This document shows positions 52,987 through 53,988 of a DNA stretch of 58,125 nucleotides, in pieces (the stretch's first letter is position 1; every line of letters starts with the position of its first letter). Made by a program: the position numbers and the translations under genes. The notes beneath the pieces are model-generated. The model was not told the origin of the DNA, ran no database searches, and worked only from the letters and a program-made list of their open reading frames with translations. The DNA is taken from positions 1 through 58,125 of IMG/VR virus record IMGVR_UViG_3300035703_000105; one strand, written 5' to 3'. Origin of the DNA: a virus. Taxonomy: Duplodnaviria > Caudoviricetes.

Positions 52987-53263
52987 TTACTTGTTTTTCT
53001 TTTCGTATTCCTGTTTGGTCATCCACTTCTGCTCACCCCAGCGTTTCAGAGATTTCTGTTTCTCTGTGCGGTTTCCCGTGTAACCGCCTCCTTTTTCTTT
53101 GTATGCTCTAGCGAGCATTTGAGCTTTTCTTGCCGATCAGTATTTAGTAGCCTTACGGCTACGACCATTCTCCTGATTTGCCACCATCAGAACCAGCCAT
53201 AATACGACGCTTTAAACGCTCACGCAAATCTGGTTTTGTGTAATTGCCCTTGTTCTCAGCCAT
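52987..53263 (-). CDS. DUF5872-like protein (82 aa) interrupted by a 28-nt coding gap (53134-53161); candidate translational bypass
   Basis: MAENKGNYTKPDLRERLKRRIMAGSDGGKSGEWS | ARKAQMLARAYKEKGGGYTGNRTEKQKSLKRWGEQKWMTKQEYEKKNK; removing the gap restores the conserved WSARKAQ motif. Confidence 0.8.
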
Positions 53264-53864
53264 AGCTGCCTCGCTCTTTAAGGTAAGTAACTGCATTAGT
53301 TAATGTATCTATATTATCACCGAACAAACCAAGAGCCCTGTTACATTCCTTGCACAACAATCCCCTGAACTCATTGGTTTTATGGTTGTGGTCCATAGCT
53401 AAAGATTGTTTATCCTTAGGAGGCTCTTGACATATTGCACACAAACCTTCTTGAGCTTTAAATACAATATCGTATTGCTCTTTTGTTATTCCTCTGCGTT
53501 CATATTTCTTGTGCTCTTTATGAAACAAATCTTGTCCTTGCTTTTTAATTTTCTGATAATGCTCCTTATTGTTCTTTACCCACTTATCCCAGTTTATTTT
53601 GTTACAGGTTTTACATGAAGAGTGTAAATATGTTTTTCCATCTTGTTTTCTTTTTCTAAAACAATCCCAGTTTAAATAGTGAGCGCACTTAGAACATTGC
53701 TTTTGTCCATTAGCTCCATATAAAAGTTTAAATCGACGAGTAAGAATAGAGCTACAGTCTTTGCAAACACTACTTCTTTTTATATTTCCTGCAGAAGTAT
53801 AACCTTTGTTTTGAAAATTTTCATGTGGCTTTCTGATTCCGCATTCACGGCAAAGCTTTTGCAT
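53256..53864 (-). CDS. Endonuclease VII-like homing endonuclease
   Basis: Two N-terminal Zn fingers; QEGLCAIC...MDHNHKTNEFRGLLCKECNRALGLFGDN. Confidence 0.9.
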   Translation of the reverse strand: MQKLCRECGIRKPHENFQNKGYTSAGNIKRSSVCKDCSSILTRRFKLLYGANGQKQCSKCAHYLNWDCFRKRKQDGKTYLHSSCKTCNKINWDKWVKNNKEHYQKIKKQGQDLFHKEHKKYERRGITKEQYDIVFKAQEGLCAICQEPPKDKQSLAMDHNHKTNEFRGLLCKECNRALGLFGDNIDTLTNAVTYLKERGSYG

Positions 53865-53904
53865 GAGTTGGTTGGTCTTGTGCTTTCCTTACAATACCAC
53901 AAAA

Positions 53905-53988
53905 TCATTGACCTGGCTTACCTCCTTTAGATCCGGCCATAATCCGGTCTTTAATACTTTCACGTAAACCAGGTTTGGTGTAAGCCAC
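53905..53988 (-). pseudogene. Truncated N-terminus of the original DUF5872-like gene
   Basis: GTG start: MAYTKPGLRESIKDRIMAGSKGGKPGQ*, with TGA at the position of the conserved Trp. Confidence 0.8.

Follow-up and report, generated by a model that had tools for sequence, protein, structure and literature searches.

Introduction

In phages and bacteria, programmed ribosome bypassing has so far rested on one family, namely gene 60 of bacteriophage T4 and its homologues among topoisomerase genes. In T4, the HNH endonuclease gene mobA lies within the gene for the topoisomerase large subunit with a clean 5' break, and the MobA element brings both a replacement for the homologous region and a 50-nucleotide (nt) gap with matched codons (bioRxiv 10.1101/2022.08.31.505936). 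According to this preprint, the gap has a stop codon after the take-off codon, a stem-loop under a UUCG or GNRA loop and an A/U-rich 3' part, it blocks cutting by MobA and outlives the nuclease, and all T4-type cassettes are in the topoisomerase gene, so that the cassette "remains unique" (bioRxiv 10.1101/2022.08.31.505936, 2022). Here we describe a locus in a 58,125-nt IMG/VR virus record from a tailed phage, IMGVR_UViG_3300035703_000105 (this whole stretch is hereafter called the window), in which a mobile cassette consisting of an endonuclease VII-type gene, a second N-terminus and a 28-nt gap is inserted into a small conserved phage gene, DUF5872 / phrog_17747. The gap is apparently bypassed by ribosomes, which would make this the second natural bypass family besides T4 gene 60.

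Like the MobA element, the cassette places a free-standing HNH gene within a conserved phage gene, where the 5' side of the insertion is a clean break, and it encodes a replacement of the homologous region that overlaps the nuclease open reading frame (ORF) out of frame. As in gene 60, the take-off and landing codons are matched, UAG follows the take-off codon, a tetraloop hairpin holds the stop and the gap is A/U-rich in its 3' portion; the gap is also retained after decay of the nuclease, as described for T4. The core of the stem, UAGCC/GGCUA, is letter for letter that of the gene 60 hairpin. In contrast to T4, the cassette targets DUF5872 / phrog_17747 rather than the large subunit of topoisomerase II, its take-off codon is one for Ser, TCG, and not one for Gly or Asp, and its gaps are 23-33 nt long and not 50. 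The nucleases also differ, with a BLASTP E value of 17 against the intact MobA of phage HY03, another Pfam family and the catalytic core at the other end. Moreover, the upstream fragment is here a 27-codon remnant closed by a stop, made redundant by the complete N-terminus that the insert brings along together with a start, while that of T4 is a working subunit with a C-terminal extension.

Two other systems show looser or partial parallels. In phage Aeh1, MobE splits nrdA, and the halves work as separate chains with added tails (bioRxiv 10.1101/2022.08.31.505936). Both that system and the present one have a free-standing HNH gene in a coding gene, with no intron or intein and with the host function kept by the design of the insert, but the MobE system as described there has neither a gap nor a duplicated segment. 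In fungal mitochondria, partial 3' duplications of atp6 and cob lie beside free-standing homing endonuclease genes (PMC6279837), which is a looser parallel in that a partial copy of the host gene is stranded beside an endonuclease gene. That case differs in being organellar, in duplicating the 3' end and in lacking recoding, and joint travel of the copy with the nuclease is not shown in PMC6279837. We found no report of the present family in the literature, where the bypass literature that we found concerned gene 60, candidate bypassing in a Streptomyces phage, and mitochondria. The mitochondrial 'byps' of Magnusiomyces are gaps of tens of nucleotides with matched take-off and landing codons and occur in many copies; they differ from the cassette in being mitochondrial, in lying in many genes and in having no known link to a nuclease gene.

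Filled and Empty Forms of the Locus

In the lineage of the window phage, 78 nt of the resident gene have given way to 846 nt (53905-53060), and the result is an inserted, mobile cassette without intron or intein. The sequence-only reading, a first reading of the letters of this DNA, had proposed such an intron-less and intein-less mobile unit, and pairs of cassette-bearing (filled) and cassette-free (empty) loci bear this out. The features are as follows; those that this reading had described were all present on inspection where it had placed them, on the minus strand.

53988-54635, minus strand: upstream gene, 215 amino acids (aa); TAG stop at 53990-53988, its last G being the first base of the GTG of the remnant
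53905-53988, minus strand: stranded resident remnant, 27 codons and TGA, reading MAYTKPGLRESIKDRIMAGSKGGKPGQ; GTG start at 53988, TGA at 53907-53905
53060-53905, minus strand: inserted cassette, 846 nt replacing 78 nt of the resident gene, from bridging contigs and the L047 alignment
53891-53904, minus strand: conserved left end of the cassette, TTTTGTGGTATTGT, holding the extended -10-like TGnTATTGT
53256-53864, minus strand: endonuclease VII-type HNH gene, 202 aa, from Pfam and PHROG profile matches
53159-53263, minus strand: replacement N-terminus, 34 codons and TAG, reading MAENKGNYTKPDLRERLKRRIMAGSDGGKSGEWS, from the ORF list
53162-53164, minus strand: take-off codon TCG (Ser), TCG in 52 of 52 alleles
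53147-53162, minus strand: take-off hairpin by predicted fold, G-UAGCC / GUAA / GGCUA-C, containing the stop and a GNRA tetraloop
53134-53161, minus strand: 28-nt coding gap, from the sequence, with TAG, hairpin, A/T-rich stretch, a landing-frame TGA and the landing TCG
53136-53134, minus strand: landing codon TCG, the last codon of the gap and identical to the take-off codon
53060-53133, minus strand: donor-type codons after the gap, ARKAQMLARAYKEKGGGYTGNRTE and part of the next codon, part of the cassette
52987-53059, minus strand: resident-type 3' gene end, ...QKSLKRWGEQKWMTKQEYEKKNK and TAA, about 93% identical to L047

The TG of the remnant's TGA stands at the position of the TGG Trp codon of relatives, and this stop, by which the first 27 codons of the resident are closed, comes with the cassette. 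The ATG of the replacement N-terminus overlaps the stop of the nuclease gene as ATGGCTGA, with GAGG 5 nt upstream, and is thereby coupled to the nuclease in translation. The gap lies one codon past the Trp, and beyond it the frame continues as ARKAQMLARAYKEKGGGY..., in a stretch that lacks its own start codon and runs to the TAA at 52987 (53133-52987). The N-terminal part matches positions 14-44 of the phrog_17747 profile and the C-terminal part positions 45-62, with a weak match of the latter to DUF5872 in a Pfam profile search, so that skipping the gap restores the family sequence with no residue lost or gained. Because the two halves are collinear on one PHROG profile and the arrangement recurs in many independent contigs, it is not a product of chance.

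The empty state was looked for in 130 related loci fetched by means of the upstream gene and the C-terminal part, 88 of which had both gene halves. As the sequence-only reading had predicted for endonuclease-free alleles, the halves were contiguous in 87 of these 88, with ...WS followed by ARKAQ in one frame; the sole exception, L051 (the same contig as L177), has the same gap. Two of the uninterrupted loci, L047 and L048, are the cassette-free form of the window's own phage lineage. Their upstream gene is about 95% identical to that of the window over the last 110 nt, and the 27 aa of the remnant are identical to the N-terminus of their allele, which continues as WSARKAQ.... Identity of the DNA between the window and L047/L048 breaks abruptly after ...GGTCAATG. 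On the other side, over about 75 nt after the gap, the window is about 65% identical to L047 and 97-99% identical to the filled L051, and the identity to L047 then rises to about 93%. The left junction is thus a clean non-homologous break inside the Trp codon, while on the right the cassette ends in a homologous crossover some 75 nt past the gap. The 25 donor-type codons that lie between gap and crossover had been missed by the sequence-only reading, which had counted the nuclease, the duplicate 5' gene segment and the gap, correctly, among the contents of the unit.

The replaced length was also obtained from two contigs of 3546 and 1351 nt (runs X2 and X3, from different studies), which bridge the site by joining 53059 to 53906 with 78 other letters between; they align to 52600-53059 and from 53906 onward, with side lengths of 65 and 255 letters, and they too read uninterrupted. 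Three other joints (52707 to 53915, 52751 to 52997, and 53025 to 53906) had sides of only 24-31 letters and were not used. A second filled/empty pair is formed by L177 (that is, L051) and L002/L003, which are 88% identical in the upstream flank. Taken over the window versus L047/L048, the X2/X3 contigs and the L177 pair, what is found is presence or absence of the cassette at one precise site in near-identical genomes, as expected of a homing endonuclease gene.

The second N-terminus had been assigned to the insert rather than to the resident gene, and comparison among contigs agrees with this: it is conserved together with the nuclease, while the remnants differ. Among the 31 viral contigs with a detectable remnant, the remnants diverge widely in sequence, but in 27 of them the remnant is ended by the same Gln followed by TGA or TAA, and in 23 of those 27 the ATG of the nuclease gene lies 35 nt after the remnant end. 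Mean pairwise identity, calculated over 23 unique filled contigs, was 0.10-0.47 in the flank upstream of the remnant and 0.67 in the remnant itself. Within the cassette it was 0.93 over the first 30 nt (its most conserved part) and 0.69-0.88 over the rest. The C-terminal part of the gene gave about 0.7, and the sequence downstream of the gene 0.15-0.39. Most of the diversity of the remnants is older than the insertion.

The first letters of the cassette include a segment, TGTGGTATTGT (53901-53891, minus strand), that bears a conserved motif. TGnTAnnnT was found in at least 58 of 71 loci, with TG fixed and n being C in 52, G in 4, A in 2 and T in 1; the hexamer is TATTGT in 35 loci or TATAGT in 15, and in 47 of the 58 its end lies 21 nt ahead of the nuclease ATG. 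From its letters and its place, the left-end TGnTATTGT is a candidate promoter of the extended -10 type, as the sequence-only reading had proposed. The conservation of the motif speaks for that proposal, whereas a scan for the sigma-70 consensus requiring a -35 element did not call it. A hairpin reading of the left-end spacer (GTGCT...AGCAC) was ruled out, since the base n is free to vary and its changes are uncompensated.

The Nuclease and Its Association with the Gap

The 202-aa protein matches the Pfam family Endonuclease_7 (PF02945; E 1.9e-22, 79.4 bits against a cut-off of 23.6, residues 120-196) and phrog_2633, endonuclease VII (E 1.2e-33). It has four N-terminal CxxC pairs, presumably zinc-binding, and a C-terminal DHNH...N core that we take to be the catalytic His-Asn-His core. 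None of 34 full-length homologues has an internal stop, DHNH.T.EFRGLLCK.CNR.LG is invariant or nearly so among them, and the cysteine pairs are invariant, and on these grounds the nuclease looks active. Its relatives in isolate phages are all less than 60% identical, with 29.6-40.7% among the 25 matches listed.

The co-occurrence of gap and nuclease had been proposed as a test of the unit, and the outcome was the predicted one. When loci were searched for by the nuclease, a replacement N-terminus and a gap lay directly downstream in all 38 loci with a nuclease at least 50% identical, and in none of the 8 loci with a nuclease at most 38% identical. In the other direction, a search for the gap pattern gave 53 IMG/VR contigs (51 genuine), 103 metagenome contigs (86 genuine) and 23 contigs of the genome collection (2 genuine), that is, 139 genuine gap-bearing loci over the three collections. 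After setting aside 27 of these with too little upstream sequence, there were 90 unique loci with at least 860 nt upstream, and the nuclease was intact in 70, partial in 9 and absent in 11. A remnant match was present at the expected place in 54 of the 70 loci with an intact nuclease.

The partial nucleases are of several kinds. L219 has an internal deletion; in L202, L204 and L206 the remnant is fused to the nuclease 3' end; L179, L182 and L198/L208/L228 retain only the last 20-40 codons; and even in L305 and L327, counted among those without a nuclease, about 25 nt of the nuclease 3' end are left. The GAGG stretch and the ATG of the replacement N-terminus are kept in all deletion derivatives. 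Most of these derivatives retain the stretch from GGTGATAATATAGAT (53307-53321, minus strand, at the nuclease 3' end) through to that ATG, L182 lacking its first letters, and over this stretch the window and L051 show 100% identity. For the hop-bearing gene it may supply, besides the GAGG ribosome-binding site, a promoter (TGnTAATAT-like), which would then be the reason why nuclease 3' ends persist.

We consider a mobile homing-endonuclease cassette, carrying its own N-terminus and a bypassed gap, to be the best explanation of the locus, and a probable one, which agrees in essence with the sequence-only reading. Some of the data pull the other way. Two sub-lineages bear the gap with no trace of a nuclease, one of a 29-nt type (L192, L207, L224, L292, L315) and one of a 32-nt type with a UUAG loop (L331, L347, L358), so that the gap may predate the nuclease or be independent of it. 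In four contigs whose nucleases are about 50% identical, the most divergent ones, the nuclease sits in intergenic space immediately behind the upstream gene and a remnant is missing, so that the unit can exist without one; this may be the older arrangement. In addition, the viral, metagenome and genome collections overlap, so that the locus counts are not counts of independent phages.

The first two of these observations, with the 11 of 90 unique gap loci that lack the nuclease, are what one would expect if the gap came first, as an old feature of the DUF5872 lineage, either regulatory or tolerated, next to which the nuclease settled later to target gap-free alleles. The T4-type bypass cassette is likewise independent of its mobilising nuclease according to Manning & Atkins (bioRxiv 10.1101/2022.08.31.505936). 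Such an order of events would alter the history of the locus and not its present-day function. We regard it as unlikely, given that all 38 close nuclease homologues are accompanied by the gap, that nuclease, N-terminus and gap arrive as one block in the filled/empty pairs, and that several of the nuclease-less loci still retain 3' remnants of a nuclease.

The Coding Gap and Its Probable Bypass by Ribosomes

The pattern used in the gap search demanded TCN, TAG and the ARKA codons, and the only set that is unbiased for these features is that of the 38 nuclease-ascertained loci. Allele statistics refer to 52 alleles including that of the window. The replacement N-terminus always has 34 codons and always ends in GEWS (51 alleles), and it occurs in few types, which match the types of gap. 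The landing codon is TCG in 50 of the 52 alleles and TCT in 2, and the pair TCG/TCA occurs twice in metagenomes. TAG follows the take-off codon in 52 of 52 alleles, as the search pattern required, and in 38 of 38 of the nuclease-ascertained set, in which ARKAQ also follows the gap in every locus, with many synonymous differences. A search for gaps opening with TAA or TGA gave one match, L233, which is a GC-rich unrelated coding stretch and was rejected as spurious. The gaps of the 52 alleles measure 27 nt (22 alleles), 24 (14), 28 (7), 29 (6), 23 (2) and 33 (1), to which metagenomes add 25, 26 and 32 nt, for an overall range of 23-33 nt.

The take-off hairpin of the window appears in both the minimum-free-energy and the centroid fold (z -2.17), and it is the only such site in the window. 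A take-off stem-loop with the stop is present in 83 of the 86 genuine metagenome matches and in all but one viral variant, and its loop is GUAA, GUGA, GGGA, GCAA, GAAA, GAGA or UUAG on an unchanging stem. Changes of the loop on a constant stem fit selection for a stable tetraloop hairpin. Upstream of it, GGRGAR precedes the Trp codon in all gap-bearing alleles, while gap-free alleles mostly have GGN CAR, and judging from this difference the purine run may be a take-off signal.

Both halves of the gene are, by their substitution patterns, under purifying selection. The ratio of nonsynonymous to synonymous polymorphism (pN/pS) was 0.26 in the N-terminal part and 0.23 in C-terminal codons 6-45, which lie outside the search pattern; in nuclease-less contigs it was 0.32 and 0.29, respectively. 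All 52 alleles have an open C-terminal frame. From these data we find it strongly indicated that ribosomes hop the gap, and we infer that one polypeptide is made from both ORFs, on the strength of the selection on the halves, the C-terminal parts without a start and the collinearity on the family profile.

Three observations tell against the hop. The stem never varies, and the hairpin thus has no support from covariation; the stem is lost in one 24-nt variant type (L180, L258, L332) and has one mismatch in L321; and two 23-nt gaps leave the -1 frame open. In L180, which has the stem-less gap, the gene halves are intact, and L180/L258/L332 and L321 are natural tests of the need for the hairpin.

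Without bypass, the gene would have been killed or split: its 34-aa peptide and its C-terminal part would be separate products or would not be made, and the phage would have no need of the intact protein. Most marine relatives are indeed split into two coupled genes elsewhere, after GGGY, which implies that parts of this protein can work as separate chains, and the window has an in-frame ATG 6 codons after the gap. However, 16 of 52 alleles lack any ATG, GTG or TTG in the C-terminal part, and many others have the first one at codon 29 or 38; the C-terminal frame is nonetheless open throughout, and the constraint on it includes codons that precede every potential start. In addition, the codons for take-off and landing match, and the hop restores the profile exactly. 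The absence of bypass is accordingly, to our mind, very unlikely. A frameshift, read-through of the stop or a reassigned TAG, or removal at the RNA level is less credible still and highly improbable, since, apart from the open -1 frame of the two 23-nt gaps, the gap lengths fall into all three classes modulo 3 and so fit no single frameshift, the connecting frame has one to four stops in 50 of the 52 alleles, in gaps with a length divisible by three there are two to four in-frame stops of more than one kind, the neighbouring gene ends in TAG as well, and we know of no self-splicing element of 23-33 nt.

The split after GGGY (compare 53083-53059 of the window) was seen in about 70 of the 88 relatives, mostly marine (L053-L130), with ATGA or TAATG overlaps. 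In L068, L074, L079, L089, L090, L107, L117, L123, L125, L126 and L130, 200-1150 nt of other genes lie between the split halves. The ORFs at this site in L079, L089 and L090 were considered as possible nucleases, and by eye they are not nuclease-like.

Proposed Mechanism and Its Implications

In the mechanism that we propose for the mobile cassette, the nuclease would cut cassette-free alleles at or beside the conserved ...CAR TGG TCN GCN... site, a location suggested by the constant junction and by the precedent of T4 MobA. Repair would then copy the cassette from a co-infecting filled genome, with homology provided on the left by the remnant and on the right by the C-terminal part. Filled genomes would go uncut as the gap splits the target sequence, and by analogy with T4 the gap may thus protect against the nuclease. 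In translation, ribosomes with peptidyl-tRNA-Ser would leave TCG before the TAG, which lies in the stable tetraloop hairpin, slide across 23-33 nt and pair anew with the next TCG, so that the full-length protein could still be made from the gapped gene. The take-off signals would be the GGRGAR stretch (giving Gly-Glu instead of Gly-Gln) and perhaps the nascent peptide, and the cassette would bring its own N-terminus because these signals lie 5' of the gap. The divergence of this copy of the N-terminus may also keep recombination from separating the nuclease from the gap. After fixation, the gap would stay while the nuclease decays because precise removal of the gap is, as we propose, difficult.

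We tentatively raise the possibility, which we think somewhat less probable than its alternative, that the gap is a portable 'immunity' module, taken up on more than one occasion by homing endonucleases that are not related to one another. The same UAGCC-tetraloop-GGCUA hairpin would then serve nucleases of the MobA type in the topoisomerase gene and of the endonuclease VII type in DUF5872. If this were true, bypass would be open to selfish nucleases in general as an evolvable means of breaking their own target while leaving the host gene unharmed; it would not be a T4 one-off, and the gaps of 23-33 nt would represent the minimal natural bypass signal.

A second family would allow general features of the hop to be separated from T4-specific ones, differing as it does in gene, nuclease, take-off codon and gap length, and more than 20 natural variants of the gap sequence are available for this purpose. 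The short gaps are also a compact object suited to ribosome studies. As to mobility, the locus would exemplify homing without intron or intein, in which a spare front end of the gene is carried together with a recoding signal.

Occurrence and Other Observations

Among cultured phages, neither a search with 2.4 kb of DNA nor tblastn with the 48-aa C-terminal part, a short query, gave a match. Two cassette-bearing contigs, L238 (2.9 kb) and L239 (2.7 kb), were binned to metagenome-assembled genomes of Bacteroidota, labelled Crocinitomicaceae and 'Bacteroidetes bacterium'. This is a weak hint at a Bacteroidota host, too weak to name one, and a binning artefact is equally possible. The public runs that contain the window stretch are mostly labelled lake or freshwater, with no RNA run among them.

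In L210 and L216 (also L273 and L330), the cassette follows another upstream coding sequence (...PCKW.K.L.E...) and not the usual remnant, YTKP...GGKPGQ. Either the resident allele in these contigs is highly divergent or extended at its N-terminus, or the cassette entered a different context there.

The window phage has DNA polymerase, primase, tail fibre and lysis genes, and the estimated completeness of the record is 68%. Just downstream of the gapped gene lies an ORF for a cysteine-rich protein of 139 aa (52554-52973, minus strand), for which neither Pfam nor PHROG gave a match. The window and L047/L048 have this ORF, L051 lacks it, with the next gene following directly, and it represents an indel between close relatives.

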